Below, piece by piece: positions 641 to 60,852 of a stretch of 64,000 nucleotides of DNA (position 1 is the first letter of the stretch; each line of letters opens with the position of its first letter). The notes under the pieces are model-generated. The model made no database searches. It saw only the letters and a program-made list of their open reading frames with translations, and had not been told where the DNA came from. Source of the DNA: a bacterium (GTDB lineage: Bacteria > Patescibacteriota > Microgenomatia > UBA10105 > UBA927); assembly GCA_021817785.1 (NCBI GenBank), contig JAKAFY010000002.1, positions 11,750 to 75,749 on the forward strand. The letters are read 5' to 3'. The position numbers and the translations under genes were made by a program.

Positions 641-2668
641 ATGAAATTAGAACTACAACAATTATTTCAGGATGTTTTGAACGAAGTCGGAGTTACTGAC
701 ATCGTTCCCGACGTTGTCATGTCTGCCGACAGCAAACACGGGGAATACACCACCAACGTTGCCATGAGACTGGCAAAACCATTGAAAAAAAGTCCGATGG
801 ATATCGCACTACAGGTTAAAACGAGCATCGAGAAGCGAGTATCGGGTGTCAGGCACAAGATTCCAGATCAGAAGAATAGCAAACCAGATCAAAAGAATGC
901 AGGCAATGTAACGGAAAAAAATACATTACAGGATAAAGATAATACGAAGTTGTCGACCAGCGATATCTTGTCGTCCATTGACCGCATAGAAATAGCTCCT
1001 CCCGGCTTTATCAACGTGTTTTTAAAGGATGTCGCCCTAAGCAGTCAGGTGAGGGAAGTGCTAAAAGATGGGGAGCGCTATGGAAAGAGCCAAAGCGGAA
1101 AAGGGAAGCACCTTATGGTGGAATACACCGACCCCAATCCGTTTAAGGAATTGCATATCGGACACTTATATAGCAATGCCGTAGGGGAGAGTTTGGCCCG
1201 TCTGTACGCTGCAATAGGATGGGATGTTTCCCGCGTGGACTACTTTGGAGATGTCGGTATGCATGTGGCCAAGTCCATATGGGGACTGCGGAAAAAAATG
1301 GCAGAAGATCATGTCACCCTGGCTGTTTTGGAAAGTAAGCCGCTTCCGGAACGGGTGCAATATTTGGGCCAGGCCTACGCAAAAGGCGCTACCATCTACG
1401 AAGAAAAGACGCCGGAGGCGGAGAAAGCCAAAGAAGAGATGAAAGACATAAACTACATGGTGTATCTGGCAGCCCAGGAGTATATGGAAAAGGCGCTCAA
1501 ATGGACGCCGCAGGTGGATTACCGCCAGTATGTGCAGGTCGATGATACGCTCTATCAGGAAGTGAAGGAACTATACGAAAAAGGCCGCACCTGGAGTATG
1601 GACTATTTTGAAACGATTTTCCGCCGGTTGGGCACGCATTTTGATGCGTATTATCCTGAATCCATCGTCGGAGAATATGGCGCAAAGCTTGTCCGGGAGC
1701 ATATAGGCAAGGTATTTGAAGAAAGCGACGGAGCCGTGGTCTTTCGCGGAGAATCCTCGAAAGCCGGACTGCATACCCGGGTATTTTTGAATTCTCTGGG
1801 ATTGCCGACCTATGAGGCCAAAGAATTGGGGTTGAACTGGAAAAAGAGCCAGGATTATGCCCTGGATAAGTCGTTTATCGTGACCGGCAACGAAATCAAC
1901 GAATACTTTAAAGTCCTGTTTGCTGCCATGGAGCAGGTTATTCCGGAAATCGGGGCAAAAACGAAACATATAGGCCATGGCATGGTGAGAAATGCGGACG
2001 GGAGCAAAATGAGCAGCCGTACCGGAAACGTCCTGACCGGCGTGGGTATGCTGGAAGAGGTAAAGAAATCAATCTATGAGATACTAGATAAAAGTGAATC
2101 ATCCTCCTTCGTTAAAACGTCTGAGGACAAGGAGGAGATAGCGGAGAAAGGTGCAATAGCAGCTGTGAAATATAGTCTGCTTCGTGTGGCATTACCCTCG
2201 AATGTTTCGTTTAGTATCGCGACATCTATTTCTTTTGACGGCGACTCGGGGCCGTATCTTTTGTACACCTATGCCCGGTGTAAGAGTGTGCTGCGGAAGG
2301 CCTCTTCTGCATCAGCATTGGTTCCCAGTTCCTTAGGTGACTTAGGTAACCTAGGTGACGTACGTTTTAATGAAGATGAGCGTGCATTGGCGCGCCTCAT
2401 CCACTTCTTTCCGGAAATCGTAGCTGCTGCGGCACATGATTTGGCGCCAAACGTCATCTGTACCTATTTATTTGATCTCGCACAGTCCTTTAATACGTTT
2501 TATCAGAAACATCAAATTATCGAGCAGCGAGAACCGAGCAGTGAGAACCGAGGCTCGATGCTCGATACTCGATACTCGAATTTTCGTCTCGTCCTCACTG
2601 CCGCCACTGCCCAGGTGTTGCAAAATGGCCTTAATCTTCTGGGCATCTCCACAGTTGAACGGATGTAA
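641..2668 (+). CDS. argS: arginine--tRNA ligase (class I) carrying in-frame insertions
   Basis: HIGH-type motif PNPFKELHIGH, a class-I catalytic core, and a C-terminal anticodon-binding domain ending ...LLGISTVERM. At 675 aa it is longer than typical ArgRS because of insertions (see findings). Confidence 0.9.
   Translation: MKLELQQLFQDVLNEVGVTDIVPDVVMSADSKHGEYTTNVAMRLAKPLKKSPMDIALQVKTSIEKRVSGVRHKIPDQKNSKPDQKNAGNVTEKNTLQDKDNTKLSTSDILSSIDRIEIAPPGFINVFLKDVALSSQVREVLKDGERYGKSQSGKGKHLMVEYTDPNPFKELHIGHLYSNAVGESLARLYAAIGWDVSRVDYFGDVGMHVAKSIWGLRKKMAEDHVTLAVLESKPLPERVQYLGQAYAKGATIYEEKTPEAEKAKEEMKDINYMVYLAAQEYMEKALKWTPQVDYRQYVQVDDTLYQEVKELYEKGRTWSMDYFETIFRRLGTHFDAYYPESIVGEYGAKLVREHIGKVFEESDGAVVFRGESSKAGLHTRVFLNSLGLPTYEAKELGLNWKKSQDYALDKSFIVTGNEINEYFKVLFAAMEQVIPEIGAKTKHIGHGMVRNADGSKMSSRTGNVLTGVGMLEEVKKSIYEILDKSESSSFVKTSEDKEEIAEKGAIAAVKYSLLRVALPSNVSFSIATSISFDGDSGPYLLYTYARCKSVLRKASSASALVPSSLGDLGNLGDVRFNEDERALARLIHFFPEIVAAAAHDLAPNVICTYLFDLAQSFNTFYQKHQIIEQREPSSENRGSMLDTRYSNFRLVLTAATAQVLQNGLNLLGISTVERM
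2519..2590. repeat. family-A in-frame repetitive element in argS (CGAGCAGCGAG ... CTCGATACTCGATACTCG)
   Basis: Homologous at the nucleotide level to lepA 13510-13580. It encodes EQREPSSENRGSMLDTRYS at a position where ArgRS orthologs are about 15 aa shorter. Confidence 0.6.
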
Positions 2669-9808: not shown

Positions 9809-9916
9809 AGGCGGATGGTATCAAAATATGGCCTATAATGCAAATTAGATAGGTTGATTAGATTCTATTGCAGTATTCTCCAATTTGTATAAGAAACAAT
9901 ATAAAAAAGTGTGCAT

Positions 9917-10186
9917 CTAAAATTTTCCTCCCTTTTTTCCGCGGCGAAGAAATTGAAGCGGCCCCCTTTTAATAGCGATATTTCCATTGTTATCTATCGT
10001 TATGTGACCATCGGACCGGGCTATTGTTGTTTGTAACATTCTTTCTGATGCGCCCGCTGCTTCAAGAACGTCTTTCGCATTGACGGATAATTTATTGTCG
10101 CCAAGAAGACCACGTAAAATACTTTCAATTTTTGTTGCCGGGCCATCGGTCTTTCTCCGGATATATTTATCTAACATACGATTCAA
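9917..10186 (-). CDS. small hypothetical protein
   Basis: 89-aa ORF in an intergenic region with no recognisable domain. Confidence 0.25.
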   Translation of the reverse strand: MNRMLDKYIRRKTDGPATKIESILRGLLGDNKLSVNAKDVLEAAGASERMLQTTIARSDGHITIDNNGNIAIKRGPLQFLRRGKKGGKF

Positions 10187-10245
10187 ATTATATCATAAAA
10201 ATGATCATAAATATAGTTATAGGATATGATATACTACCGATTTGT

Positions 10246-11070
10246 ATGGCCATGATTGAACGTTCTACATTTCGATCGCCCGAAACGCACCCTCATTCCA
10301 CGCGTGCATTGTTGTGGGCAACGCTGACCAGCGCTACTGTGGAAAAGGACTATGTGCCGAACCGAGAGCGGCAAAACACGGTATTTGACCGCATAGACTG
10401 GAGCACATTTGAGTCCGAAGTGGCTGCAGAATCGACAGGAACTGGTGAAGGAGCGGGAAAAAGGCTTCGCGGTAAGATTTTTGAGATGTTTATTCAGGCG
10501 GATCCTGAATTCGGAGAGCGTACTCCGTTGGAAAAGGAATTATTGGCCTTGGCTCACAATCCAGATGCATTTGGATTGGGGAAAGAATTAGGCTACCACC
10601 GAAACCCCGATATGGCGTTTCTTATTGTCCAAAAAGAGGATGGTGTGGTCATCGAGGGAGTCGGAGAATCGAAATTGGGACTACTAAACGAGCGCTCGTT
10701 TAAACAACTATCCGAAACAGGCTTTGCTGCCGGGGTGAAAGCGTTAGCAGACGTGGTCAATACATTGCCGAACCCAGAAGCGCATGGGCTTGTCGAAGTG
10801 GCAAAAGCACGACAGGCACTGGCTCCGGGCAAGCAGCTGCTTACAATCTCTCCGGAATTTACCCAGCTTCTTGTGGTGCCTGCAAACCGCACAATTGAGT
10901 GGGCGAGCACGCTTATTAACCGCCGAGAGTTTAGTCCAGCCGGCAGGCAGGAGTTTTACGAGTTATTGAACGATACCCGTCATGTTCGGACGGCGAGAGC
11001 GGCCTTTAGTACGGCAGAGGTATCCGCAGTTGCGAATTGTTTTTCTCGCAATTTGACGAGAGGTACATAA
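10246..11070 (+). CDS. hypothetical protein
   Basis: Start trimmed to the ATG at 10246 within ORF 10132-11070. No recognisable domain. Its last roughly 55 nt are duplicated at 12036-12090. Confidence 0.4.
   Translation: MAMIERSTFRSPETHPHSTRALLWATLTSATVEKDYVPNRERQNTVFDRIDWSTFESEVAAESTGTGEGAGKRLRGKIFEMFIQADPEFGERTPLEKELLALAHNPDAFGLGKELGYHRNPDMAFLIVQKEDGVVIEGVGESKLGLLNERSFKQLSETGFAAGVKALADVVNTLPNPEAHGLVEVAKARQALAPGKQLLTISPEFTQLLVVPANRTIEWASTLINRREFSPAGRQEFYELLNDTRHVRTARAAFSTAEVSAVANCFSRNLTRGT
10984..11039 (+). repeat. 55-bp direct repeat, left copy (3' end of the 10246-11070 gene)
   Basis: GTTCGGACGGCGAGAGCGGCCTTTAGTACGGCAGAGGTATCCGCAGTTGCGAATTG is about 87% identical to 12036-12090. Confidence 0.6.
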
Positions 11071-11117
11071 TTTTTTTCTCTCTTTGTTATATTCGTGGTA
11101 TACTCCTGGGCTGTCCT

Positions 11118-11924
11118 ATGCTGCGAAGTCAATTTATTGAGTGTGTGCATGATATTTACCCGTCGCCGAGTAATTTGTTGTCGTCGGTTGCGCGGCGCAA
11201 CCTGTCTGTTCTGAAGCAGTTGTTTCCTGAGTCTAAAAGAGAACGGGATCTATGGCCTTGGCGTATCAGACAAGTAGGAGATGGACAATTGGAATTAAAA
11301 GGGAGCAATAATACATCTGCACTCGCAAGTACCATATATGTAGATATTGTAGCAGGACGTATACAACGGAGTGATACACGAAGAGGGCGGGCAGACCTTT
11401 TAATGCTCCCCACGGCATTATCTTGTATGCGTCGCGTTGCAAAAGCGTATCGTATGCACGTGGTTGGAAATGAACCGATCGTGCAGCGCAGAGGTGTGAG
11501 ACTGGAAACGGAGCCACTTCATGATGAAAGTGCAGTGATTTCTTCTCTTGCGTCGTGCACGGTTGGCAATACGTTTCCGTACGGTAGCTTGCTTGCTCAT
11601 ACCGCGGAAACGGTGATGTCAGATACAAAATGCGGCCGGTGTTTGACCCAACGACCTTTCACGGCGTCGTGGGAGATACAAGTTGCCCTCAAGGGAAAAC
11701 GGCCGTTTGAACGATTGTTTGCTGCGCCATTTGGAAACACGATTGTCTACGTTGCCGGATTTGGTGATCATAGAGACATGTCAGATACACACTGGTCGTT
11801 GCTCAAAGACACCTTTCCTTGGGTTATAAAACAAAAGGGAAACGCAACAAGAACCTGGGATTGGGTGATTAGTCGCATGGGTTCCAATCCAGTGAATATG
11901 CTAAAGACAAATAGCTGGCGGTGA
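11118..11924 (+). CDS. hypothetical protein flanked by direct repeats
   Basis: Start trimmed to the ATG at 11118. No recognisable domain. It sits between 55-bp direct repeats. Confidence 0.4.
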   Translation: MLRSQFIECVHDIYPSPSNLLSSVARRNLSVLKQLFPESKRERDLWPWRIRQVGDGQLELKGSNNTSALASTIYVDIVAGRIQRSDTRRGRADLLMLPTALSCMRRVAKAYRMHVVGNEPIVQRRGVRLETEPLHDESAVISSLASCTVGNTFPYGSLLAHTAETVMSDTKCGRCLTQRPFTASWEIQVALKGKRPFERLFAAPFGNTIVYVAGFGDHRDMSDTHWSLLKDTFPWVIKQKGNATRTWDWVISRMGSNPVNMLKTNSWR

Positions 11925-12035
11925 TTATTTGGCGCACATTTTTTTGTTATCTATCGTACAGTCCTAATGCGTTTAGCGCAGTTGAATGTGATTATGTTCG
12001 GTCGAAAGCAGAAAGTACAAGTGTTGTTTGGCAAC

Positions 12036-12090
12036 GTTCGGACGGTGAGAGCGGCCTTTAGTACGGCAGAAGTAAGCGCGGTGGCGAATG
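12036..12090 (+). repeat. 55-bp direct repeat, right copy (intergenic)
   Basis: GTTCGGACGGTGAGAGCGGCCTTTAGTACGGCAGAAGTAAGCGCGGTGGCGAATG. Together with the left copy it brackets the 11118-11924 ORF. Confidence 0.6.
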
Positions 12091-12269
12091 TCTTATTTAA
12101 AGCCAGGCTTTGAGATTGGTTAGCTCATTGTGGCGAGCTAAATTTTTTAGTTCAGATATCATCTGGACACAAAAACATTCATTTCCGTACAATTCCATAT
12201 TTTTTCATTAGAGCGTACAAAATGGTGTTAAAAAATACGTTTGATAGGGGTAAAAAACGAAGGAATGAA

Positions 12270-12551
12270 TTAGTTGTCGCTAGTGTTGACCGCGTCTTCT
12301 GCAATTCTTTTTTTCAAAAGTCGTCGTAATCGTATCGTTAAGTTTGATAACAGATCGGTCTTCGTGTCTGGTGTAGACTCCATGAGTGTAACGTCACCTT
12401 GTATGGCTTGATTTATTCCCTGAATTCTTCTAAACGCTTGTACTTGCTGCAAATCCTTTCGATTCATTGATGTGCTGCCTTTTTTTTCTGCCATATTTAA
12501 TAAATATATTAAATATAATTTCCAATGTCTATATTTTACAAATAAGGTCAA
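12270..12551 (-). CDS. small hypothetical protein
   Basis: 93-aa ORF upstream of lepA on the opposite strand with no recognisable domain. Confidence 0.25.
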   Translation of the reverse strand: MTLFVKYRHWKLYLIYLLNMAEKKGSTSMNRKDLQQVQAFRRIQGINQAIQGDVTLMESTPDTKTDLLSNLTIRLRRLLKKRIAEDAVNTSDN

Positions 12552-14646: not shown

Positions 14647-15384
14647 TTATTTTGCGACCAGTTTCCGTTTCGTCAGTTTTTCCACGCCGTGGATCAACAG
14701 CTTTGATAGCAAAAATAATGCGACGTTTAGCCCCACGATCCATCCGATATTCGTTGCCATCCCAGAAAGAAAAAGCTGCACATCGTAGGCTACGGTGTCG
14801 GTGAGGGAGACGCGGATGCCCACTATGTAGAGCGCTGTTGCGATAAGGGCCACGATGATGGCTACCGGCCAGAAGCCATCCATATCTTCCGGAGAAGAAA
14901 ACATGGTGTTGGAAACGGCAAAAAGAGCGTACCCGGCGATAATCAGTAGATACACGGAAATATTAGAAAATACCGTGCCGGCTGCGGCATCGAGCTGTGT
15001 TTGCTGCCATAAGCCGGGAAGAAAATACGAAAGAAGCCCCAGCGCACCCAGTCCCACAAATACCGGTGCTACCCCGATAATCGCTCTGCGAATAGGATCG
15101 GATTGGGCGATAGAAACACTCCCGGTGCGCACCTCCGTTTTTTCCAATCCTTCGGGTACTAACGTAAGACCGCTTGTTTTTACGCCCAATATTTCTGCGA
15201 CAAACAGATGGGCGAGTTCATGAATCACCGTTCCCGGGAAAAAAATCAGGGAAAGAAATCCGATGCTCACTTCCCGCGATTTGGTGAGCAAAAAAGCGGC
15301 GACATACAGATTTTGCGTCATCCGGCGGGAGAGTAACCAGAGAAGAAAGAGTTCGATAGCAAGAAGTATGATGAGAAATGCCAT
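14647..15384 (-). CDS. putative membrane zinc metallopeptidase (M50B/DUF3267-like)
   Basis: HELAHLF (HExxH) motif at the edge of a TM segment, and about 6 TM helices in 245 aa. The gene is convergent with and abuts the lepA stop. Confidence 0.5.
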   Translation of the reverse strand: MAFLIILLAIELFLLWLLSRRMTQNLYVAAFLLTKSREVSIGFLSLIFFPGTVIHELAHLFVAEILGVKTSGLTLVPEGLEKTEVRTGSVSIAQSDPIRRAIIGVAPVFVGLGALGLLSYFLPGLWQQTQLDAAAGTVFSNISVYLLIIAGYALFAVSNTMFSSPEDMDGFWPVAIIVALIATALYIVGIRVSLTDTVAYDVQLFLSGMATNIGWIVGLNVALFLLSKLLIHGVEKLTKRKLVAK

Positions 15385-15513
15385 GGTTGCGTTCGGTAGC
15401 CGTTATGGTGTCAATTTGTTACTTTGTCAAAAGTTGCGCCTTTTTCTGCAATATTTGTCCAAGAAAGCGTTGCTTTTGTCTGCGAACTATGAACTTTCTT
15501 TCTGTAAACTCGT

Positions 15514-16452
15514 TTAGTGTCCGCCACCCTCGTTTTGGCCGGTCATGAGCGGCATAAAGAACATCAGTACTAATGCCCCTTTCATAAATAACGGCATAAG
15601 GACATCCATAAATGCCACTTGTTCTTCTGGAGACATGTGTTGTATCCGGCCGAATATCTCATGTGCTTTGGAAAGATTTTCTGTCGTTGTTTCTATTCCG
15701 GCAAGTTGCAAAATATTTTCCGGGGTCGGATGAAGACCTGTGAACCCGTCTACGCCGGTCAATTCTTTCCAGACTGGTTGTGCAAGATCGGCGTTGGTTT
15801 GCAATAACTGTGCGATGGTGCTTCCGGCATCCCGTGAGCCGGATTTGATTTGGTGTATGACTTCGGCGGGTACTGCTTTATCTGGGTGTGCTTCATTATA
15901 TGTCGCAATAATCGGAAGCAAAGCACTTTGCTCCGGATCAGGTTCGGGAAGCTTAAGGTCGGTAATCTGTTTTTGCAACGCATCGAGCTTTATGACGGCG
16001 TCGGGCGGCATGTCTGCATTACTCATTTTACTGACCATACGAAGCGCATCGAGACGCATTTCATTTCCGAGCGGTGTATCAGCGGCCTGTGTCGCAAGGG
16101 CGGAGAGAACCAAACGCATATCACGTAATTCCAATAGCAGGGCATTAGTCTCTGTCAGTAGGTGATCAATAGCTTCTTTATTTGGCAGAGACTCTTTTGT
16201 CCGGGTTGTCACCTCGGTATTCGTGGATGCCGATGTTTCAGTCGAAGAAACGCTTTTTGCGGCCGCAGCGTTTTCTGATATTATCTCTGTGGCTTCTGCC
16301 ACCGGAACTCCTCTGGCGATTTGTTCAAGCGCGGTATGGGCTGCATGAGCGGGTTTTGACTCGAATGGTGGTGCTGCTTGTGGTTTTTCTTTTGCGGCAA
16401 CCTGCGGATGTGGGTGTTCCTTTGGCGGGGGAATGGGTGCAATCTCTGTCAT
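15514..16452 (-). CDS. hypothetical protein with a low-complexity N-terminus and hydrophobic C-terminal tail
   Basis: 312 aa with a Pro/Ala/Glu-rich N-terminus and a C-terminal FMDVLMPLFMKGALVLMFFMPLM tail-anchor-like segment. Confidence 0.4.
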   Translation of the reverse strand: MTEIAPIPPPKEHPHPQVAAKEKPQAAPPFESKPAHAAHTALEQIARGVPVAEATEIISENAAAAKSVSSTETSASTNTEVTTRTKESLPNKEAIDHLLTETNALLLELRDMRLVLSALATQAADTPLGNEMRLDALRMVSKMSNADMPPDAVIKLDALQKQITDLKLPEPDPEQSALLPIIATYNEAHPDKAVPAEVIHQIKSGSRDAGSTIAQLLQTNADLAQPVWKELTGVDGFTGLHPTPENILQLAGIETTTENLSKAHEIFGRIQHMSPEEQVAFMDVLMPLFMKGALVLMFFMPLMTGQNEGGGH

Positions 16453-16554
16453 AGATATAGTATAGGCAGATTTATCTGTAGGAAGTCAATGTTGCTGCTA
16501 CATGATGCTCATGGACACACAATAAACCACTATATCTGTTTATCATTTGCTAAT

Positions 16555-16580
16555 TTCCCCAATTGGTGAAATTGACAAAT
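16555..16580 (+). promoter_or_regulatory. palindromic operator-like motif copy 1 (TTCCCCAATTGGTGAAATTGACAAAT)
   Basis: Contains CCAATTGG and the CAATT-N5-AATTG inverted repeat plus a TTGACA -35-like hexamer. It lies 30 bp upstream of the PaaX-like gene. Confidence 0.45.
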
Positions 16581-16608
16581 TACCATACTACATCGTACGA
16601 TAGGGAGT

Positions 16609-17190
16609 ATGGCTAGGCGGGGGGCTAAAAAAGACATGAAGCAGCACGCGACGAAAGAAATTATATTAGAGTTGTTGCGTGAGGGCGGAACCCTTCTTAT
16701 CAGCGCGATAAAAGCAGGCCAGGAGCTTCGGCATCTTCGGGTACTTCGTGACCCGCTTCCGTCCTGGGAAGCGTATTATCCTTCGTCGGTCAATCGGCAA
16801 CTCAACCGTTTGTGGCGGAAAGGATATGTGGATATACGGGAAACGACTGAAGGATATGTTGTAACGATTTCTGATCGGGGGAAGACAGAAGTGCTTCGGT
16901 ATGACCTCAATACGATGGCAATTCCTGCTCAAACACAGTGGGATGGTAAATGGCGCATGGTGATATTTGATATTCCTGGGAGCGAAGAAACCGTACGGTC
17001 CGCATTTCGTAATCATTTAAAATCATTGGGATTTTACCAAATGCAAAAAAGTGTCTATGTCTATCCCTACCCTTGCGACGAGCAAATTCATTATCTGCGT
17101 GAGGTGTACAACATTCCGCATTCCGTTAAAATCGCGACGATTTCTGAGCTGGAAAACGATGAAGATTTGCGAAAAATCTTTCATTTATAA
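16609..17190 (+). CDS. PaaX-family transcriptional regulator
   Basis: N-terminal winged-helix region, and the C-terminal WDGKWRMVIFDIPGSEETVRSAFRNHLKSLGFYQMQKSVYVYP matches the PaaX_C signature W-G-W-x-V-x-F-x-P-E...LGFG. Confidence 0.7.
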   Translation: MARRGAKKDMKQHATKEIILELLREGGTLLISAIKAGQELRHLRVLRDPLPSWEAYYPSSVNRQLNRLWRKGYVDIRETTEGYVVTISDRGKTEVLRYDLNTMAIPAQTQWDGKWRMVIFDIPGSEETVRSAFRNHLKSLGFYQMQKSVYVYPYPCDEQIHYLREVYNIPHSVKIATISELENDEDLRKIFHL

Positions 17191-17192
17191 GT

Positions 17193-17235
17193 ATATATTT
17201 GTCAATTTTCCCAATTGGTGGATTTGACAAATATA
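17193..17235 (+). promoter_or_regulatory. palindromic operator-like motif copy 2 (ATATATTTGTCAAT-tttCCCAATTGGtgg-ATTTGACAAATAT)
   Basis: Near-perfect 13-bp inverted repeat flanking the CCAATTGG core. It lies between the paaX-like stop and the first gene of the paralog array. Confidence 0.5.
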
Positions 17236-17251
17236 TCCAAATACACAGCAT

Positions 17252-18298
17252 ATGAGTGAAATGGCATCACAGACACCGGGAGAGATAAGGAATAAAATAC
17301 CAGTAGGGGCAAAACCGCTGGAGCGGAGCGTTTTGATAGGTATGTGGGATGTAACCAAAAAAGCAGTGGAGAGTCAGAGCGCTCGTGCATGGAACGAACG
17401 GATTATCAAAACGATAAATGAAAAGATCATCCCGAAACGCACTCCAGAAGAACTTGCATTTATCGCCAAACATCACATGGCGATCGAACGAGCTGCGACA
17501 GTCTCGGGGATTATTATTTCCTCCGCGGAAATATATACAGTTTTTTTGCTTGCCGCTCTAGGGAAATTGCAAATTGACCGCATGAGGGCGGTTTCCCGCT
17601 ATCGAGAGGCATTACAGAAGCATTTTGCCGCAGACCCCGGATTTCAGGATATAAAGCGTGTATATGATGGTATCCATTCCGGTAAAAAAACCGTCGGCTT
17701 TTTCGCATTTGCTACGGCTATAAATACCTTGTTAAACCAGATTGAATCAGGACAACGGCAGCAAATCAATGCGATGCTGCGTACGCCAAAAAATATACAA
17801 GAGGCCGACATCGTGCTGGAACGGATCTATAAGTCAGCATTTTGTGAAGCGAAAAATATAGAACGCCGGGCGTTAGGTCAGCCGGCGTTACCTCTCGATA
17901 ACCCCCGGCTGGCAGAGGAAGCGAACGCATCCTATGGAGAATGGAGAAACATACAGTGGAGGGGGTTGGATGGTGTTCTGCACCAGATGCGCTTTCCCCG
18001 TGGCCGAAAACGGGGATTATATCAGGCGATGCAAGGGGTGGACAATCACGCAATACTTGCCCAGTACATACAAAGCATTATGCCTTTGACCGGCGATGAA
18101 GCCATGTTAGGTGGTCCGCCAATCGTCGTTGATGAATCTGTCGAACACGATGGAACAATAGTGCACCGGGAGAAAAAATATCATGGCCCTCCACAATCTC
18201 CTGTTGGGCTTCGCGAAGGGCGTGAATATCAACTAAACGCAAAAGGACGGATGAAGACACGAAGAAATGAACATGGTCAAAATGGGAATGTCTGGTGA
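17252..18298 (+). CDS. paralog-array protein 1 (conserved N-terminal module, variable C-terminus)
   Basis: N-terminal roughly 90 aa share a pattern with the four downstream genes (G...A.K......GK..L..Y..L....T.EEKK, then a hydrophobic helix AIGW/VSGI...). Confidence 0.55.
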   Translation: MSEMASQTPGEIRNKIPVGAKPLERSVLIGMWDVTKKAVESQSARAWNERIIKTINEKIIPKRTPEELAFIAKHHMAIERAATVSGIIISSAEIYTVFLLAALGKLQIDRMRAVSRYREALQKHFAADPGFQDIKRVYDGIHSGKKTVGFFAFATAINTLLNQIESGQRQQINAMLRTPKNIQEADIVLERIYKSAFCEAKNIERRALGQPALPLDNPRLAEEANASYGEWRNIQWRGLDGVLHQMRFPRGRKRGLYQAMQGVDNHAILAQYIQSIMPLTGDEAMLGGPPIVVDESVEHDGTIVHREKKYHGPPQSPVGLREGREYQLNAKGRMKTRRNEHGQNGNVW

Positions 18299-18322
18299 GT
18301 ATAATGAGATACGGAGGAATAT

Positions 18323-19906
18323 ATGGTTGAGGGTGCAGGAATACGAGAGTCATCGCTGATATCGCCTGAGCCGTCCAAAAAGACGGTACTCTATGGTATT
18401 GGACGGGCGGGGGAGGCAATCAATAAACAATTAGGGCCGAAAGCCTGGGAACAGCGGGTGGACAACGCCATAAGCACGTACATTATCCCTCATGTTTCTC
18501 CCGAGATGCGGGAGACGATAGAAACGTATAAGCCGGAAATAGCCAAATGGTCGGGCTGGGCGATTACCGGCGCCGAAGTGGCGGTAGTAGCTGCCGCAAC
18601 CTATGGTGGCATCCGGTTGGTGGTGAACAAACTTCATAAGCGGCACGTTCCCACTCCAAATTCTCCTGTTCCGGTTACCCCGGATTTGCATATTCGTTCT
18701 GATGCGAAGGAATGGTGGGAACGCATACGCATGGAGGGAGACATACCTGAAGATGATTCCGGTCTTGATTTGCTTAGAAAATTGAGTGCAAAAAAGCCCG
18801 CACCCCCGCCAGTATTTGTTGTAGGTCCGGACGAAGTTCCGTCATGGCTTCGTGAATTAGCAGGGGATCATGCGCCGGCCGGTGCCAAAGCAGATAATGT
18901 TCCTGATTGGGTGCAGGAAGTTATGCATCGCCGCACGTTACAGGGCGCTGATAAAGTGCCAGATTTTTTGAGAAAAATATCCGCACGCAACCATGTATCA
19001 CAAGCCAGCGAAGCGGCTGCGAGCGACATTGGTTCTCATACTTCACGATGGTGGCAAGACCGAGCTGCCGCAGGGTTGGATACGTCTGTATTGCACACCG
19101 TACGCAAAATACCCAAACCCAGGACCAGATCATCGCCTTCGTCCGTTCCGATCAAGGATTTGCCCGTTCATACCAGGATATATTTTGACAAGAAAAAGAT
19201 ACAGAACATTTTTGCACGGAGACGTTCTCGACGTATTCGGGATATTCAAAACCAGGTACGGCGGGTAAAAGAACGCCGTTTTTCGGACTTGGCGCACCCG
19301 ATCGACCCAATGGCTTCGGCCAATGCAGTCGTTCAGGTCTCCCCACGTGCGGAAGAATATCAACAGTTACTCAGACGAAAACGGGCTGAAACAGAACGAC
19401 TGTATATAGACGATATGCGCCTGCGGCAAGAGATGAGAGAAAATGCGAGGCTCCGGGCTCTCGAGAAGAAACGAGCAATACTGAAAGAAAAAATAGATGC
19501 AGTAAGAAAAAGAATGGGGGAACACCCTTATGCCGTCCAAATGGTAGCTCCGCGTATACAAGATGAGATTACGCGGGCAGCACAGTCCAAGGTACTTACT
19601 GCCAATCCGGTCCGGTCCGAGCAACAGGGATGGATTGCGGATCAGCTTCGGGAGGTGATGGAACGGATACATGAACCAAAGGTTCGCAGGCAGTTAGATC
19701 GGTTGCTCATAGCCCCGACAGATCTAACATCATCAGCAGAACGCGCTGAAGTCGGCCGTATCGTCACTGATTTATTTCAGGCAGTTCAGTCGGACAAAAC
19801 CCCCTCAATGCAGGCAACAGTTATTCAGCGGGGCAGTCAGTGGGTTTCGCTTGGTATGCCCGGGCTACATCATGTGATTGATTATTTCATCTCACATAGA
19901 AAATAA
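18323..19906 (+). CDS. paralog-array protein 2, with an Arg/Glu-rich coiled-coil C-terminus
   Basis: Conserved N-terminal module (KTVLYGIGRAGEAINKQ...SGWAITGAEVAVVAAATYG). The C-terminus has RRRSRRIRDIQNQVRRVKERR and long R/E-rich helices. Confidence 0.55.
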   Translation: MVEGAGIRESSLISPEPSKKTVLYGIGRAGEAINKQLGPKAWEQRVDNAISTYIIPHVSPEMRETIETYKPEIAKWSGWAITGAEVAVVAAATYGGIRLVVNKLHKRHVPTPNSPVPVTPDLHIRSDAKEWWERIRMEGDIPEDDSGLDLLRKLSAKKPAPPPVFVVGPDEVPSWLRELAGDHAPAGAKADNVPDWVQEVMHRRTLQGADKVPDFLRKISARNHVSQASEAAASDIGSHTSRWWQDRAAAGLDTSVLHTVRKIPKPRTRSSPSSVPIKDLPVHTRIYFDKKKIQNIFARRRSRRIRDIQNQVRRVKERRFSDLAHPIDPMASANAVVQVSPRAEEYQQLLRRKRAETERLYIDDMRLRQEMRENARLRALEKKRAILKEKIDAVRKRMGEHPYAVQMVAPRIQDEITRAAQSKVLTANPVRSEQQGWIADQLREVMERIHEPKVRRQLDRLLIAPTDLTSSAERAEVGRIVTDLFQAVQSDKTPSMQATVIQRGSQWVSLGMPGLHHVIDYFISHRK

Positions 19907-19907
19907 T

Positions 19908-20729
19908 ATGCCCGAACGAAAAAAAACAGTCAGTCATAATACACCGTTCGTTGAACGGATGTTTATCGGTGTCGCACGCGCACCCAAAGCCTGGTCGGAA
20001 TATCAGGGGAGAAAGGCACTTGATATCTATGATGCGCTCAAATTTACCAAATTAACCTCCGAAGAAACAAAAATAGCAGATAAAACCCGTGCGTTTATCA
20101 ACAAACACCAAAAAGCTATCGGCTGGACGGCAACCGCATTCGAGATCGCTGTGATAGCAAAGATAGCGGCAGCAGGATACGGGCGATTGCATAAAAATAG
20201 CGACCATATAGTACAGGACTCGCAACCCGCATTCCCAACAGACTATGTCGCTGATTTGGCACCGGAGAGGGCAACCATGAAAGACGTCGTATCCGTATTG
20301 GCGATGGGTATTGTTCCGAAAGATCAATCTGCGGCGATTCTCGAAGCGCATTTTGCTCAATTTGCCGCAAAAAACAGTATTCCCATTCATCTGAAAGCAG
20401 AGAACACGCAATTACTATTCTCCCTTATAGGGGACGCGATACTCGGATGGAGGGGAATAGCGCAGGAATTTTTCACGGCTGATTTTTACACGCTTTGCAC
20501 AGCGATCTTTCTGAGGATAGCGTCCACGGACAAGGAAGACTCAATAGACTTGATGCATCAGGCTACGTTTGTATTGGACGGAGCATTTCCACATGATCCC
20601 CCTCAGGACGATGGTCCGGTGCAGACGGGTGTTGATGTCTGGAAATCACTCCAATTTTTCGGCATGAAAGATATTGCGTATCATTTTATTTCGGTATTTA
20701 AACGGAACGCTCATGAAGGAACAGCATAA
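19908..20729 (+). CDS. paralog-array protein 3
   Basis: ATG immediately follows the upstream stop. N-terminus FVERMFIGVARAPKAW...TSEETKIADK...AIGWTATAFEIAVIAKIAAAGYG. Confidence 0.55.
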   Translation: MPERKKTVSHNTPFVERMFIGVARAPKAWSEYQGRKALDIYDALKFTKLTSEETKIADKTRAFINKHQKAIGWTATAFEIAVIAKIAAAGYGRLHKNSDHIVQDSQPAFPTDYVADLAPERATMKDVVSVLAMGIVPKDQSAAILEAHFAQFAAKNSIPIHLKAENTQLLFSLIGDAILGWRGIAQEFFTADFYTLCTAIFLRIASTDKEDSIDLMHQATFVLDGAFPHDPPQDDGPVQTGVDVWKSLQFFGMKDIAYHFISVFKRNAHEGTA

Positions 20730-21783
20730 ATCAGCGGATGCACCGCGCGTAAAACAGGTGTTTGTCGGGGTAGGAAATGCACTGAAACATATGACTCCCG
20801 AACATCAGGGAAAAGGCATATTGGCTCTGTACGACCATCTGTATTATTCTACGCTGACGGATGAAGAGAAAAAAGTGAAAGGCAAACTCCGGCCGATTAT
20901 AGAAAAGAATACCGCCGCCATCGGCTGGGCAGCAACGGGAGTAGAAGCAGCCACTCTCATCGCAATTGTTGCTATGGGTCTCAAGAAGTTTCGCTCAACG
21001 CGTGCTTCGGAAATGAATGCCGCAATAAAAGATGGAGTGATTCCCCAGCCAAAATTTATGCGTCCGGATGGAGAATTCCTTACGGAAGTCAGGCAGGGGC
21101 TTATGCGCACACATAATGAATTCAAATCAGAAGATATCGAGCTGATGTTGCATATGGCATTTGGCCAACGACCCACAGCAAAAGTAGCAGGAGCGATTGA
21201 TGAAGCCCTTCGGGAACGAAGCAGTCTGAACGATGCACACCTGGAAGGCGCATTCATAGAGCACGTCTATACTATATACAATAAACTGCCGATCCTTCGT
21301 AGGAGTATCGATAAGGATTTAGCGGTTCTCCATGAGGCAAATTTCCCCGGATTTGAACATATTATCATGGAACAGTGGAAATGTATGCCGGAGTCTCTTG
21401 CGACAACCGTTATCGATGCGCTCTCTAAGCATGTTGATTTGGCTGCGGCTAAACAACTTTGGGAGTTGCTGCATCCGTATCGAGAGGAGGCGTATACTTT
21501 TGAATCCTTTGCGAGTCCGCTTCACTGGAGTTCGATGTGGAACGGGCTTATATGGGGAGTGTTTGAGCGGTTTGTGCATATGCCAAGATCGGCAGAAGAA
21601 CGGAGCGCTTTGTTGAATCAGCCGGATATGTCGGAAGCGTGGTATACATTTTTTCAGTCATTCCGTATAGATGATCCGACGCATATAGCACAGCACATAC
21701 TCGACGACATATGTATAAAAGGGGCACGAGAGCTCGGGGACAGTTTTTTGAACAAATCCGTGTTGGAAAAACTGATAGGATGA
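20713..21783 (+). CDS. paralog-array protein 4
   Basis: 17-nt overlap with the upstream gene. N-terminus VKQVFVGVGNALKHMTPEHQGKGILALYDHLYYSTLTDEEKKVKGK...AIGWAATGVEAATLIAIVAMGL. Confidence 0.55.
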   Translation: MKEQHKSADAPRVKQVFVGVGNALKHMTPEHQGKGILALYDHLYYSTLTDEEKKVKGKLRPIIEKNTAAIGWAATGVEAATLIAIVAMGLKKFRSTRASEMNAAIKDGVIPQPKFMRPDGEFLTEVRQGLMRTHNEFKSEDIELMLHMAFGQRPTAKVAGAIDEALRERSSLNDAHLEGAFIEHVYTIYNKLPILRRSIDKDLAVLHEANFPGFEHIIMEQWKCMPESLATTVIDALSKHVDLAAAKQLWELLHPYREEAYTFESFASPLHWSSMWNGLIWGVFERFVHMPRSAEERSALLNQPDMSEAWYTFFQSFRIDDPTHIAQHILDDICIKGARELGDSFLNKSVLEKLIG

Positions 21784-21784
21784 T

Positions 21785-22648
21785 ATGCATATGCCGGAAG
21801 TGTCTCGGACAACCTACCATGCCAAAGATACGCTCAAACGCGTCCTGATAGGCTCATGGAATGCAGTCAAACCTGAGCACCAGGGGAAAAAAGTGCTGGA
21901 ATTTTATGAAAAACTTCGGTTCCCAAAATATACGGACGAAGAAAAGAAAGTCGCAGACAGAATATATCTTCTGCTGAAAACGCATTCGAACGCCGTGGGA
22001 GTCGGGGCAATCGTTGGAGAGACGGCGGTGGCAGCTGCAGTCGTGTGGGGATATACACGTTTAAAACATCATAAGAAGTCTCTGCTACGGTCACAAGAAG
22101 GGCAACCTGCAGAGAAAATAAGCGGAGAGGTACTCTCGGTTGATGATTATCTTCAGAATACATTGGTCCCTCGCGATACCGCCATAGGTATTGTTATGGA
22201 TGAAGGAGTTGAAACATGGGGGATAGAAAAAAGAATATTAGATATATTAGGATATCACGATGAAGATCGTGTTGGTGAGATGGCATTTCTGCTTGGCTGT
22301 GCTGCACGAGTGCTCGATCCGATGAAGCCAAACGAACTACAGTTGGGTGATATCGGCACCGTGCTTTTGGATCCGAAGAACTTCGAAAAAATGAATGAAC
22401 TAGCGAATCACACTCCTCTGGAAAGCGGATTTCAGGCATTTCCCGTGGATCCGCATGTGGTTATAGACCGTCTTCGGTTCCTGTTTCGGGATGCTCCGGG
22501 CGGGTCTGACCTCTTTACGTATTGGGGCAGAGTTTTGCGTTTTACCGGGCTCCACGCCCTTATTCCCGGAGGGACGACACGTACGGATGGCGGCGCGGGT
22601 GTCCATCGGGTCTTGACGTGGCTATATATGGCCATGTCCTCATCGTAG
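21785..22648 (+). CDS. paralog-array protein 5
   Basis: ATG lies 1 nt after the upstream stop. N-terminus LKRVLIGSWNAVKPEHQGKKVLEFYEKLRFPKYTDEEKKVADR...AVGVGAIVGETAVAAAVVWGY. Confidence 0.55.
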   Translation: MHMPEVSRTTYHAKDTLKRVLIGSWNAVKPEHQGKKVLEFYEKLRFPKYTDEEKKVADRIYLLLKTHSNAVGVGAIVGETAVAAAVVWGYTRLKHHKKSLLRSQEGQPAEKISGEVLSVDDYLQNTLVPRDTAIGIVMDEGVETWGIEKRILDILGYHDEDRVGEMAFLLGCAARVLDPMKPNELQLGDIGTVLLDPKNFEKMNELANHTPLESGFQAFPVDPHVVIDRLRFLFRDAPGGSDLFTYWGRVLRFTGLHALIPGGTTRTDGGAGVHRVLTWLYMAMSSS

Positions 22649-37290: not shown

Positions 37291-38196
37291 TCAGATAGAC
37301 AAGGTCGAGTCTTGCACCAAATCTGCAAATATAAGAAGTCGCTCTGTCGTAGAACCCGGAGGCCAGCAGGTCTGGAGGATAAGATTTTTGGTGCCTGCGT
37401 GGGGGACGAGGTAAGAAACAGCCTCGGGAGAGACAATCTTTTTTTCGGTGATTTTGTATGTGTACTGGCGGCCTTTGTATATGATAGCTATCTGGTCTCC
37501 CGTGTCCAGGTTTTTGACCAGGTAAAAGACGGCGTTTAGGTCTTTTACAAACCAGTCGTAGCTTGTGGAATGGGAAAAAAGGTACACCGTGCCGTTTTCG
37601 TCCGGAAAGTAGCTTGTGGAGGCGTGTGCGACCCCTTCGGTGAGCGCTTTTTCGTATTCGCCCGGGTTTGCAGGATTGACGGCTGGGATAACCTTGGCAT
37701 TCACCCCGATTTTGGGGATGATGAGGCCAAAGTTGGTGTCCACCGGCACGATTGCGGAGCCGTCCGGATTGGTAAGCGGGGTAAAAAGCACGGTTTTGGC
37801 GTTCGTGGCCACGGGTTTGGGTGCGGGCTTTATGCGGTCGGCAAGGGAGCGCGAAAGCGTAGAGAACGCAGGCACCATACGCTTCGTGGCGCGGGAACCG
37901 TATTGAAGCGTCTCTATAGCAAGGATATCTGCCCGTTTTGCGGCTGTATTGATGATTGTACGAGCCTGCATGCTACGGTACCCAGCCTCTAACCGGATAA
38001 ACGGCGTAAGCGGGCCGGTAAGGCCGCCTAAAGCCAGCGCAATGAGGCCAAGGCCGAGTATTTTGCCAAGATCGGACTGTTTTTTTTGCGTTACTGTCGA
38101 CTGTGAACCGTGAACTACGGACTTTTTATAGTCCCAGTCGTGATAGTAGATGATGCCGGAGGAGCGCATAGAGTTAACAAAGTGACAAATTGACAA
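37291..38196 (-). CDS. sortase family transpeptidase
   Basis: N-terminal TM anchor, conserved His region (YLFSHS), catalytic TLxTC-like LILQTCWP, and RLLIFA (Arg). It lies about 700 bp from the LPVAG substrate gene. Confidence 0.75.
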   Translation of the reverse strand: MSICHFVNSMRSSGIIYYHDWDYKKSVVHGSQSTVTQKKQSDLGKILGLGLIALALGGLTGPLTPFIRLEAGYRSMQARTIINTAAKRADILAIETLQYGSRATKRMVPAFSTLSRSLADRIKPAPKPVATNAKTVLFTPLTNPDGSAIVPVDTNFGLIIPKIGVNAKVIPAVNPANPGEYEKALTEGVAHASTSYFPDENGTVYLFSHSTSYDWFVKDLNAVFYLVKNLDTGDQIAIIYKGRQYTYKITEKKIVSPEAVSYLVPHAGTKNLILQTCWPPGSTTERLLIFADLVQDSTLSI

Positions 38197-38325
38197 AGTA
38201 ACGGGAAATACAGTGTGTGATCTTAATTGGTTACTTTGTTTGTCGGTAATTTGTTATAGTAGTATACACTATAAGCTAGTTGTGGGCAACTGAAGTAACA
38301 AGGTGCATGTATAAAGAAGTACGTA

Positions 38326-38649: not shown

Positions 38650-39231
38650 TTATTTACGTATACGCGGTGATGCCGCTATTGGGTGCGGCGATACATACAG
38701 CGATTTTTCAAACCGAACCATGGGAGTACCCGCTATGGTCACCCGGCCGGTTTCTTCAAAGCCTACGCCGGTAAATAACCGGATACTTTTTTCGTTATTG
38801 GGTTTGATCATAGCCCGGACAGACGTAAGGTGCACGGTGTTTTTTGCATACTCCAAGACTTGTTGTATGGTCTGCTTGCCTACGCCTTTACTCTGATATT
38901 CTTTTTCGCCGATGACGATGCCGATTTCTCCGGTATTTTGCGGTTGTTGATCTTGGCGCAAACTGACCAGTCCGATCGTTTTCCCCCCGGCTGTGATGTC
39001 AAAATAATGCCGAAGCGGGTCGGTGGTGGCGTAGTATATCCAGTTATCAATATCCTGCGGCATGCTGGGGAGGTCATCATACATCCATGTGCGTATATCA
39101 GGATCATTCATCCATTTCATCCAGTTGGTAAACGTTTGGTGCGAATCCGTGGTTTTTTTCAGCGTCACAGTCGGTTGGGATGGGATTTCTTTGTGCGTTG
39201 CTGGGATAGGTCGTTCGGCGATGGCGTTCAT
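38650..39231 (-). CDS. GNAT family N-acetyltransferase
   Basis: Acetyl-CoA binding motif region GIVIGEKEYQSKGVGKQTIQQVLEYAK (Q/R-x-x-G-x-G/A). Confidence 0.75.
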   Translation of the reverse strand: MNAIAERPIPATHKEIPSQPTVTLKKTTDSHQTFTNWMKWMNDPDIRTWMYDDLPSMPQDIDNWIYYATTDPLRHYFDITAGGKTIGLVSLRQDQQPQNTGEIGIVIGEKEYQSKGVGKQTIQQVLEYAKNTVHLTSVRAMIKPNNEKSIRLFTGVGFEETGRVTIAGTPMVRFEKSLYVSPHPIAASPRIRK

Positions 39232-39291: not shown

Positions 39292-39333
39292 GATATTTGT
39301 CAATTTCACCAATTGGGAAATATAACAAATATA
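39292..39333 (-). promoter_or_regulatory. palindromic operator-like motif copy 3 (reverse orientation), upstream of the GNAT gene
   Basis: ATATTTGTCAATttcaCCAATTGGgaaATATAACAAATAT is the reverse complement of the 16555/17207 motif. It lies about 65 bp upstream of the GNAT start. Confidence 0.45.
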
Positions 39334-39421
39334 TGTGAAGCGACTCAAGACATACAAAGCCTATCATCTGCTTAGGTGATCCCGTATGCGGAAGGCGGGC
39401 TATTACTGAACGGCCCGTTTT

Positions 39422-40015
39422 TTATATTAGAGCCGGGGGAAGGGAAGGTATGGGCGCTGCTGCTCCCGGCATGCCGCGCATGACCGGAGTGCCGTTTATG
39501 ATTGCCCGGACAATTTGATCGGTGCTGCCGCCAGGAAGTTTGTCCCACATTTTCGCAGCATCCTTGCCGGCGGTTGTTTTGTAGTATTCCTGATACGTAA
39601 TCGTTTCATTTTGGATCGCTTTGCGTTCGTGAGCAATAATTCCCCATGGCCAGAGTGCACTTCCTGCAGCCATCGTCGCTCCTATGGCAATACCCGGCCC
39701 GACTATGCCCGGGAATACGGATCCAGCTGTGGCGGCAACAAGTGCCACCCATGCACCGGGAACCATGCCGAATACACGCATGGTGAGATCACTCATCAGC
39801 GTGTCCACATCTTTAATTTTGAGCATGTCTCTTAGTTTCGGAAGCATATCCTGATAACTCTTTTTGAGCGCCCCTTCAGGAAGTACTAAAATAATTTTTT
39901 GGAATTGTTCAGCGCGGGCGGAAGAAACCGGATGAATGATTTTTTCAATGCCACCTCGTACGCGGTCTACAATAGATGTAGATGATTGCTCGTGAGACAA
40001 GATACGTTCTGACAT
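39422..40015 (-). CDS. hypothetical membrane-associated protein
   Basis: 197 aa with the Gly/Ala-rich hydrophobic segment GAWVALVAATAGSVFPGIVGPGIAIGATMAAGSALW. It lies immediately downstream of the giant gene on the same strand. Confidence 0.4.
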   Translation of the reverse strand: MSERILSHEQSSTSIVDRVRGGIEKIIHPVSSARAEQFQKIILVLPEGALKKSYQDMLPKLRDMLKIKDVDTLMSDLTMRVFGMVPGAWVALVAATAGSVFPGIVGPGIAIGATMAAGSALWPWGIIAHERKAIQNETITYQEYYKTTAGKDAAKMWDKLPGGSTDQIVRAIINGTPVMRGMPGAAAPIPSLPPALI

Positions 40016-52819: not shown

Positions 52820-53257
52820 TTATTTCAGTGATTTGAGGTAGGTGTTCAGAAGTTTGAGCGCCTCTTTTTCGCTCCCGTAGACTAATTCCTTTTTTACGGC
52901 CGGGCACCCGCGAAGCATGCGTGAGATGCGTTTGCCCTTTTCATACATAAGGACGACCGGGATACGGTTTCTTCGGGCATATTCGATCTCGATGCCGGTG
53001 CCTGTGGATGGCTCACCCACATAGGCGATCATGATGTCGCTGGTTTCCAGTTCATACGTGTCTATCTGGTACACGCGGGAAGAGGGGACGTCGGGAGCGA
53101 GTTCCGGATCGGTGCCCCGCTGCCACGCCCAGAAATACTCACAGTCGTTTTTGCGCGCCACATGGGCGAGTTTGGTATAAAATCTCTTCGTTTCTTCCGG
53201 ATTTTTGAGGTCCGTAAGCGGTCCGCCAAAAAAGATACGCATAAGGTGAGTCTCCAA
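52820..53257 (-). CDS. nucleoside 2-deoxyribosyltransferase-like protein
   Basis: MRIFFGGPL N-terminal Rossmann strand and SDIMIAYVGEPSTGTGIEIEYARRNRIPVVLMY match the NDT family D-x-G-T-x-x-E-x-G-x-A motif. Confidence 0.55.
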   Translation of the reverse strand: METHLMRIFFGGPLTDLKNPEETKRFYTKLAHVARKNDCEYFWAWQRGTDPELAPDVPSSRVYQIDTYELETSDIMIAYVGEPSTGTGIEIEYARRNRIPVVLMYEKGKRISRMLRGCPAVKKELVYGSEKEALKLLNTYLKSLK

Positions 53258-53362
53258 CAGAAAGGTAGTATAGCATGAAAAGAGAATGAATGGCCAATAG
53301 CCACGAATTAAGTCAAAAGTGAATTCACAAACTAAACGATAAATACACTTTTATTCTTTTAC

Positions 53363-60850: not shown

Positions 60851-60852
60851 TG

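Follow-up and report, generated by a model that had tools for sequence, protein, structure and literature searches.

The window analysed here, a 64,000-nucleotide (64-kb) stretch of contig JAKAFY010000002.1 from a bacterium of the Microgenomatia (Patescibacteriota), contains a gene for a 193-residue regulator that lies between two copies of one palindrome of about 36 bp. The regulator is a two-domain protein, referred to here as mini-PaaX, without the ligand-binding C-terminal domain of PaaX, and its relatives form a large family in which the arrangement of palindrome, gene and palindrome recurs with a different palindrome at each locus. Because this bracket recurs, because the palindrome is private to each locus and because residue 127 of the protein covaries with a base of the palindrome core, the palindromes are probably operators for the dimeric mini-PaaX that the bracketed gene encodes.

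Four copies of the palindrome, S1 to S4 (Table 1), were identified in the window by a repeat search and by direct reading of the sequence. They share the form ATTTG-N9-CCAATTGG-N9-CAAAT over 36 bp, and all of them are located between open reading frames (ORFs). A symmetrised position weight matrix (PWM), built from 11 sites including the window's own four copies, scored S1 to S4 at 47.4-57.9 bits, while the runner-up in the 64 kb reached 8.6 bits and 20 shuffles did not exceed 14.4 bits. The window thus holds exactly four copies, far above chance, which bears out an earlier reading of the same DNA from its sequence alone (the sequence-only reading). The intervals given there were essentially right, the first of them (16555-16580) being too short at its left end, and the TTGACA arms described on both strands are full in S2, which alone has both complete TTGTCAA/TTGACAA arms, whereas one arm is degenerate in each of the other three copies. 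An intergenic fifth site, TTCTATTGCAGTATTCTCCAATTTGTATAAGAAACAATATAA at 9863-9904, scored 8.6 bits, inside the range of the shuffles, and was not counted. As that reading had also proposed, S1 and S2 flank the ORF of a PaaX-like regulator, the product of which matches PaaX_M. The dyad of S1, between positions 16562 and 16563, is located 46 bp 5' of the regulator ATG, and that of S2, at 17214/17215, lies 24 bp 3' of the stop codon; the two dyads are 652 bp apart, and S2 ends 16 bp 5' of ORF 17252-18298.

Table 1. Positions of the palindrome copies and associated features in the window.
Feature	Position	Strand	Description
S1, upstream (U) copy	16543-16584	+	Core CCAATTGG at 16559-16566; 56.1 bits; overlaps the predicted regulator promoter
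Sigma-70-like promoter of the regulator (predicted)	16572-16601	+	-35 TTGACA at 16572-16577, 18-nt spacer, -10 TACGAT at 16596-16601; 10/12 matches
Regulator gene, 193 aa	16609-17190	+	PF20803 and PF09827 matches; putative N-terminal winged helix and C-terminal Cas2-like domain
S2, downstream (D) copy	17195-17236	+	Core at 17211-17218; 57.9 bits; best palindrome of the four
Five co-directional ORFs	17252-22648	+	Unknown function; downstream of S2
S3, solo copy	39293-39334	- (reverse-complement match)	Core at 39309-39316; 53.4 bits; one degenerate arm
S4, solo copy	53362-53403	+	Core at 53378-53385; 47.4 bits; one degenerate arm

The bracket is conserved among homologs of the regulator, although its sequence is not. 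In orthologs at 52-63% identity the arms persist while the core changes, the core CCAATTGG being common to the window and the loci L004, L007 and L010. L004 (63% identity; TTTCCCAATTGG...TTGACAAAA) has the motif on either side of the gene, and so are CCAATTGG palindromes placed in L007 (61%) and L010 (54%), the latter with different arms (TTTGCATA...GCAAAT, with TAAGCA/TGTGCA in place of TTGACA). In L008 (58%) and L009 (52%), palindromes with the cores CCGATCGG and TGCATATGCA, respectively, occur before and after the gene, and the position of S1 relative to the gene is kept in all five loci. Another 80 more distant homologs (31-50% identity) were fetched from metagenomes, and the bracket was tested in 69 distinct loci with enough flanking sequence (31-65% identity) by comparing 150 bp upstream with 260 bp downstream of the gene. 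At least 20 of 24 bases were shared between the two flanks in 53 of these loci, compared to 5 of 207 mismatched flank pairs, and the common element is a palindrome specific to the locus. In an alignment centred on the dyad, a measure that has no control, U and D copies were identical at 22 or more of 36 bases in 70/78 loci. Cores found across the family include ACGATCGT, GCGATCGC, CCGATCGG, GCTATAGC, GCGATAGC, GCTCGAGC, GCACGTGC and GCGGCCGC, and the arms are equally diverse. The dyads are situated about 18-120 bp 5' of the start codon and about 17-100 bp 3' of the stop codon, with a U-D spacing of 584-850 bp (median 663). The similarity of U and D copies ends about 21 bp from the dyad; therefore, they are not parts of longer duplications.

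Several features of the sites and of the protein suggest that the one reads the other. Symmetry and identity between U and D share one profile along the site: counted from the dyad, positions 1-4 are high (0.81-0.99), positions 5-7 dip (0.47-0.69), positions 8-17 are high again (0.72-0.90), and background is reached beyond position 22. Such a profile would fit a site of three parts in which each half-site offers two blocks of contacts, in keeping with recognition by a protein. Mutual information between site and protein was inflated by ancestry, with z values of 2-8 over all protein columns; of these columns, only the outlier was used and then checked on a tree. This outlier, at z = 15, connects the base at core position 4 with residue 127, located directly after the FDIP motif that is invariant in the Cas2-like domain. 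The combinations observed are K-G (27 times), R-A (17) and E-C (5), and within the "LY" subfamily the correspondence is complete, with R-A in 12/12 and K-G in 19/19 cases (Fisher 7e-9, without phylogenetic correction). When residues 118-136 were left out of a neighbour-joining tree, the R/A and K/G states were scattered over it, requiring about 19 and 23 parsimony changes; therefore, residue and base have switched together many times. Similarly, the types of the putative recognition helix (residues 56-72) track the types of the arms, a correspondence observed without a formal test. Taken together, the recurring bracket, the private palindromes and the tracking of a core base by residue 127 lend strong support to the earlier suggestion that the motif is the operator of a dimeric factor, and it is from these that we infer binding.

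The identity of the protein is indicated by profile and fold searches. PaaX_M (PF20803) matches residues 109-186 with an E value of 1.5e-21 (76.7 bits, cut-off 24), and Cas2 (PF09827) matches within the same residues (E 3.9e-6). The regulator also scores above the cut-off of the Cas2 model TIGR01573 (28.5 vs 24.5 bits), and a PADLOC scan returned Cas2_II (E 1.7e-8) and nothing else. For the PaaX equivalog TIGR02277, in contrast, the score was 33 bits (cut-off 264.55), and the match was confined to profile positions 37-156 of 279; with 193 residues, the protein lacks the C-terminal ligand (phenylacetyl-CoA, PaaX_C) domain of PaaX. No winged helix-turn-helix family of Pfam scored above threshold, and a PHROGs scan gave no match. 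In the AlphaFold2 model, the Cas2-like domain has the order beta-alpha-beta-beta-alpha-beta with a predicted local distance difference test score (pLDDT) above 90. The N-terminus is modelled with helices at 16-35, 52-55 and 60-70, followed by three strands at 73-98, and residues 1-70 have a pLDDT of 40-55. The best match of the model in the PDB, as determined by Foldseek, is E. coli PaaX (8a39; 148 columns over both domains, root-mean-square deviation 14), followed by many Cas2 proteins (target-normalised template modelling score up to 0.66) and M. tuberculosis Rv0674. A sequence search of the PDB yielded weak Cas2 matches only (E about 0.1), so that PaaX is reached through the fold search. 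Asp121 is invariant in the homolog alignment and aligns with the FDLP motif of true Cas2, which holds the metal-binding Asp. The homologs are annotated as Patescibacteria. An identical protein is encoded in the metagenome-assembled genome GCA_021842445.1, and L004 resides on a 1.2-Mb contig labelled Ca. Gottesmanbacteria. At 50% identity clustering the family comprises 4,300 clusters at E <=0.001 and 2,537 clusters at E <=1e-10. No relatives were found in 2.9 million viral contigs, and a phage-repressor origin was dropped for this reason.

The two copies of the bracket differ in their relation to promoters. The -35 hexamer of the predicted regulator promoter is the right arm of S1, and the regulator ATG follows 7 nt after the predicted -10; judged by the start deduced from this layout, the regulator mRNA may be leaderless or nearly so. 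The same order of arm, -35 and -10 is kept in the orthologs L004, L007 and L008 (TTGACA-18-TAAAAT, -TATGAT and -TAGACT, respectively). Across the family, a promoter score of at least 9/12 was obtained for 38 of 65 U copies versus 10 D copies on each strand, and a score of at least 10/12 for 21 of the 65 U copies versus two D copies on the sense and one on the antisense strand (Wilcoxon 5e-8). Two layouts are found among the U promoters. The -35 is provided either by the gene-proximal arm, as in the window, or by the distal arm; in the latter case, the -10 is positioned between the core and the proximal arm. As the U copy overlaps the promoter in either layout, a bound dimer would occlude it. 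One subfamily (loci L080-L092, L081 being an example) has palindromes directly adjoining the ORF on either side, the U dyad preceding the ATG by 18-27 bp and the D dyad following the stop codon by 17-22 bp. Its U palindrome contains the entire promoter, which implies leaderless mRNAs. For the D copies, including S2, the promoter scan revealed no partner on either strand, and no promoter was detected between the regulator gene and ORF 17252. The gene that follows the D copy is co-directional at 26 loci and convergent at 25. A D copy that has no promoter and occurs regardless of the orientation of the next gene therefore belongs to the regulator gene and not to the downstream operon. This bears on two proposals of the sequence-only reading. 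Of the divergent -35 boxes envisaged in the TTGACA arms, the gene-proximal one of S1 is plausible in view of TTGACA-18-TACGAT and the same layout in orthologs, whereas the opposite arm found no support, and the boxes proposed at S2 did not hold, as D copies have no promoter partner. S2 had further been taken as the operator of the gene array that follows it; since D copies have no promoter and are indifferent to the orientation of the neighbour, we rejected S2 as promoter or operator of that array as a general rule.

Based on these data, the following mode of action can be proposed. The outer arms (positions 8-17 on each side of the dyad) are probably read by two putative winged-helix domains and the 8-bp core by the Cas2-like dimerisation domain seated on the dyad. 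Residue 127, which is E in the window's protein, would be a candidate determinant of the outer core base pair, and cores GCAATTGC or ACAATTGT in place of CCAATTGG would pair with K or R at this position. A dimer at S1 would compete with RNA polymerase at the -35 and thus bring about negative autoregulation, as does E. coli PaaX at Px. S2 would serve as an auxiliary operator from which a loop to S1 could stabilise repression; alternatively, protein bound at S2 would block transcription leaving or entering the gene, acting as a roadblock or insulator. Given that no promoter is detectable between the regulator and ORF 17252, read-through transcription of the ORFs at 17252-22648 could be gated by a roadblock at S2. 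In S3 and S4, mini-PaaX would have two additional low-copy targets. The most likely form of regulation, as predicted from the arrangement of sites and promoter, is autorepression of the gene with an auxiliary downstream operator, be it through a loop or a roadblock.

A number of observations weigh against the palindromes being operators of mini-PaaX. A promoter-less operator after a stop codon has no known precedent, and any role of the D copy is a guess. The covariation statistics carry no formal correction for phylogeny, and the winged-helix part was modelled at low confidence (pLDDT 40-55, residues 1-70). Extra copies of the palindrome are rare (4/69 loci in 335 kb), a 1.2-Mb Ca. Gottesmanbacteria contig matches the strict pattern TTTG-N8-MCCAATTGGK-N8-CAAA only at its two bracket sites, and no output is obvious for a regulator that has conserved sites only on either side of its own gene. 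In addition, double differences between U and D copies are compensatory in 44 of 94 cases, compared to 5-11 of about 60 (8-17%) in shifted controls; G.T outnumbers A.C by 69 to 29 on the sense strand of the D copies, where composition predicts about 1.2:1; and D copies fold better than U copies (median -13 vs -7 kcal/mol). These latter findings would favour palindromes that act mainly as nucleic-acid hairpins, either 3'-end structures in RNA or cruciforms in DNA, which stabilise or end the transcript and insulate the gene, with protein binding secondary or absent. The better palindromes are indeed those of the D copies, which often directly adjoin the stop codon (in one subfamily, the dyad follows it by 17-22 bp), and S3 and S4 are also located directly 3' of co-directional ORFs. 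However, the shifted-pairing controls for the G.T bias fluctuate, five or more T residues within the next 8 nt occur after only 8/68 D copies, and the dip in symmetry at positions 5-7 coincides with the dip in U-D identity, unlike in a uniformly selected stem. The U copies, lying over the promoter, would not form part of the transcript made from it. Selection for a hairpin also leaves unexplained why the sequence is private to each locus, common to U and D and correlated with residue 127, and we therefore consider hairpins as the main function to be unlikely, albeit deserving of attention. Intrinsic terminators as such were rejected: at least five T in the 8 nt after the stem are present in 8/68 D and 4/67 U copies, and a terminator scan found nothing at S1 to S4. 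It might be speculated that the D copy has a dual role and may be both a DNA operator and a 3' RNA hairpin.

The tight delimitation of the gene by near-identical palindromes in most family members would also be compatible with a selfish or mobile cassette, in which the Cas2-like domain acts as a nuclease or recombination factor on the flanking palindromes and S3 and S4 are scars or targets. The cores resemble restriction-type sites (CGATCG, GCGATCGC, CTCGAG, CACGTG, GCGGCCGC), the Cas2-type Asp121 is invariant, and conserved sites outside the bracket are few. This scenario is very improbable in our view, as the flanking synteny on both sides is common to the window and the 63%-identical L004: upstream of the regulator, both have LepA plus a pair of unnamed ORFs on the minus strand that are similar in length, and downstream a 527/528-aa ORF, a 952/976-aa ORF and a GT1 gene, the 527/528-aa pair being matched by position. 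LepA linkage was also observed in L009. With synteny kept on both sides in L004, the regulator locus looks vertically inherited. Furthermore, there is one copy per locus, longer repeats are absent, U-D similarity being confined to about 21 bp on either side of the dyad (no search aimed at short target-site duplications was made), the 2.9 million viral contigs hold no relative, no transposase, HUH or integrase domain was detected with Pfam and NCBIfam, and the U copy doubles as promoter. That Asp121 makes mini-PaaX a site-specific nuclease or recombination factor on its own palindromes, and the whole a selfish or insulated module of Patescibacteria, is a distant prospect; if true, it might provide an evolutionary bridge from PaaX-type regulators to CRISPR adaptation proteins. 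Finally, the palindrome might be a generic promoter module, consisting of a TTGACA -35 with an upstream element or of a site for an alternative sigma factor, without any regulator-specific operator. The TTGACA in the arms of the window's clade, the -10 of S1 at 18 nt and the overlap of S3 and S4 with promoter-like sites are in line with this. Yet the D copies including S2 have no -10 partner, L010 keeps the palindrome with arms TAAGCA/TGTGCA, cores and arms vary by locus, and the site, present in four copies in 64 kb, accompanies a single gene family, which leaves this explanation with hardly any credit. We thus return to the palindromes as probable operators of mini-PaaX in considering the remaining copies.

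S3 is located between ORF 39422-40015 (minus strand) and the GNAT gene 38650-39231 (minus strand), about 59-94 bp upstream of the start predicted from a conserved GNAT promoter (TTGCCT-17-TATACT, with the ATG 11 nt further on). L158, the locus of a 64%-identical ortholog, has kept this promoter as well as the neighbouring genes, which encode a giant protein of about 2,000 aa and a sortase; no palindrome was found there. For the GNAT protein itself, the public call is 156 aa, the ORF from the first ATG 193 aa and the length of homologs 170-179 aa; the promoter 11 nt before the first ATG and its conservation in L158 support the long form and imply a very short leader. S4 is situated between a 113-aa ORF (53408-53749, minus strand) and ORF 52820-53257 (minus strand), which encodes a nucleoside 2-deoxyribosyltransferase-like protein (PF05014, E 1.2e-6), and embeds the minus-strand promoter-like site TTGCCA-16-AAAAAT. 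Both S3 and S4 overlap a weak minus-strand promoter-like site, aimed at the GNAT gene and the deoxyribosyltransferase-like gene, respectively. A genome-wide motif scan, as advised by the sequence-only reading, was run with the strict pattern over 185,579 species genomes. It returned 67 stretches, about 64 of them single matches in unrelated phyla, at a chance expectation estimated at about 35-70. The true matches comprise the L046 bracket pair on a Ca. Gottesmanbacteria contig, the L049 pair 850 bp apart and a single Paceibacterota site in L062; the scan thus recovered the bracket pair in a relative, the other matches being mostly single and at chance level. The window's own four copies were not returned, so that its genome apparently lies outside the set. 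In L007, a third CCAATTGG palindrome at 1722-1757 falls inside a called 244-aa ORF (1405-2139, minus strand), which is either a wrong ORF call or an intragenic site.

The five ORFs downstream of S2 may be co-transcribed with the regulator. Three of them, of 283, 369 and 287 aa, are paralogs with 34-42% identity and share an N-terminal region, while those of 348 and 527 aa are weakly related (27% over 55 aa, E 0.003); the five-gene paralog array of the sequence-only reading therefore reduces to three clear paralogs and two weakly related ORFs. No matches were found for the products scanned in Pfam, NCBIfam, PADLOC or PHROGs. L004 has a single 528-aa ORF at 10695-12281, and an 80-aa ORF, where the window has the array (paralogs at 19878-22648), and the array thus appears to have expanded in the lineage of the window. 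A regulon that links the array, the GNAT gene and the locus at 53.4 kb, as initially envisaged, is plausible but weak, as the GNAT ortholog has no palindrome and extra copies are rare; if it exists, it would be small and lineage-specific.

Some further elements were noted in the window. A terminator-like hairpin on the plus strand at about 39397-39425 (CGGGC, a 12-nt loop, GCCCG, then TTTTTT) was missed by the terminator scan, probably owing to its loop-size limit. About 90 nt 5' of it, a promoter-like TTGTCA-18-TATAAC is embedded in S3 on the plus strand, with no ORF between the two. The segment 39335-39425 (plus strand) could encode a small RNA under the control of S3; it has no Rfam match. 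Two pairs of intergenic repeats, one of 37 nt (89% identity; 15440-15476 and 27762-27798) and one of 31 nt (84%; 15400-15430 and 38174-38204), are placed upstream of the 952-aa ORF, near the start of the sortase ORF and between ORFs 14647-15384 and 15514-16452, and may represent promoter or operator motifs of another regulator. At 60782-60835, 54 nt match a portion of the neighbouring tRNA-Arg gene (60852-60924, minus strand) at 83% identity and may be a decayed tandem copy; neither ARAGORN nor Rfam called a tRNA there. A direct repeat of 54 nt (89%) occurs at 10984-11037, at the junction of ORFs 10132-11070 and 11037-11924, and again 1052 bp away at 12036-12089, after ORF 11037-11924.

Among characterised regulators, E. 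coli PaaX, with operators at the paa, pac and Px promoters, is the closest counterpart. Its experimentally defined operator is TGATTC-N27-GAATCA, and it autorepresses the Px promoter by steric hindrance (PMC9493321). Both proteins share the PaaX_M Cas2-like dimerisation domain, with 8a39 as the best fold match; the N-terminal DNA-binding region of PaaX has a putative counterpart in mini-PaaX, modelled at low confidence. In both cases the operator, predicted in ours, is a long palindrome with widely spaced arms (ATTTG-N26-CAAAT), S1 overlapping the -35. By analogy, with the PaaX_M domain and the operator geometry in common, mini-PaaX would work like a PaaX-type repressor-operator system with autorepression. 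Unlike PaaX, it has no phenylacetyl-CoA domain and is hosted by Patescibacteria, and unlike the PaaX operator, its site has an additional conserved 8-bp core and, throughout the family, a second, promoter-less copy after the stop codon. No paa genes were recognised among those ORFs near the four sites that were scanned, a subset of the ORFs in the window. Repressors with flanking operators and DNA looping are exemplified by lambda CI at OR and OL, DeoR and GalR. As in these systems, the mini-PaaX gene is located between two putative operators, and the spacing of hundreds of base pairs would fit a loop. In the known cases, however, the second operator also has a promoter under its control or is situated inside or ahead of a regulated operon, whereas the D copy of mini-PaaX has no promoter and is indifferent to the orientation of its neighbour.

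With CRISPR Cas2, mini-PaaX shares the ferredoxin-like fold and the sequence motifs of its C-terminal domain. In Cas1-Cas2 complexes, the Cas2 dimer is seated across a DNA duplex at its centre, similar to the arrangement proposed for mini-PaaX. Cas2 contacts the DNA backbone only, whereas the Cas2-like domain of mini-PaaX is fused to a putative DNA-binding domain and its proposed contact, between residue 127 and core position 4, is base-specific. Tentatively, and with more doubt than confidence, we suggest that the Cas2-like domain reads the central core in a base-specific manner; if so, the Cas2 fold would serve DNA recognition in a new way. Searches of the window revealed no CRISPR array, the scanned ORFs included no recognisable cas1, and none of the genes called beside the regulator homologs has a Cas1 domain. 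A gene bracketed by two similar, presumably protein-recognised palindromes is also reminiscent of REP/RAYT systems, the ends of IS200/IS605 and dif modules; unlike in these, no HUH/Y1 or tyrosine recombinase domain was detected, the sites are low in copy number, synteny is conserved and the U palindrome is a promoter. Literature searches turned up no description of the mini-PaaX family or of PaaX-like regulators in Patescibacteria. Measured against the literature found, the new elements would be an abundant two-domain family of Patescibacteria with private palindromes on both sides of the gene and a promoter-less copy after the stop codon, and, as it appears from the covariation, a Cas2-like domain that contributes base-specific recognition of the core.

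Patescibacteria make up a large and mostly uncultivated share of bacterial diversity, with tiny genomes, and their gene regulation is almost unknown. Each examined member of a large regulator family now gains a predicted binding site and a candidate specificity residue in an unexpected domain. The D copy poses a testable question, looping or roadblock, in minimal genomes. As specificity appears to be re-programmable, with K, R or E at residue 127 going along with G, A or C at core position 4, these proteins could supply orthogonal repressor-operator pairs.

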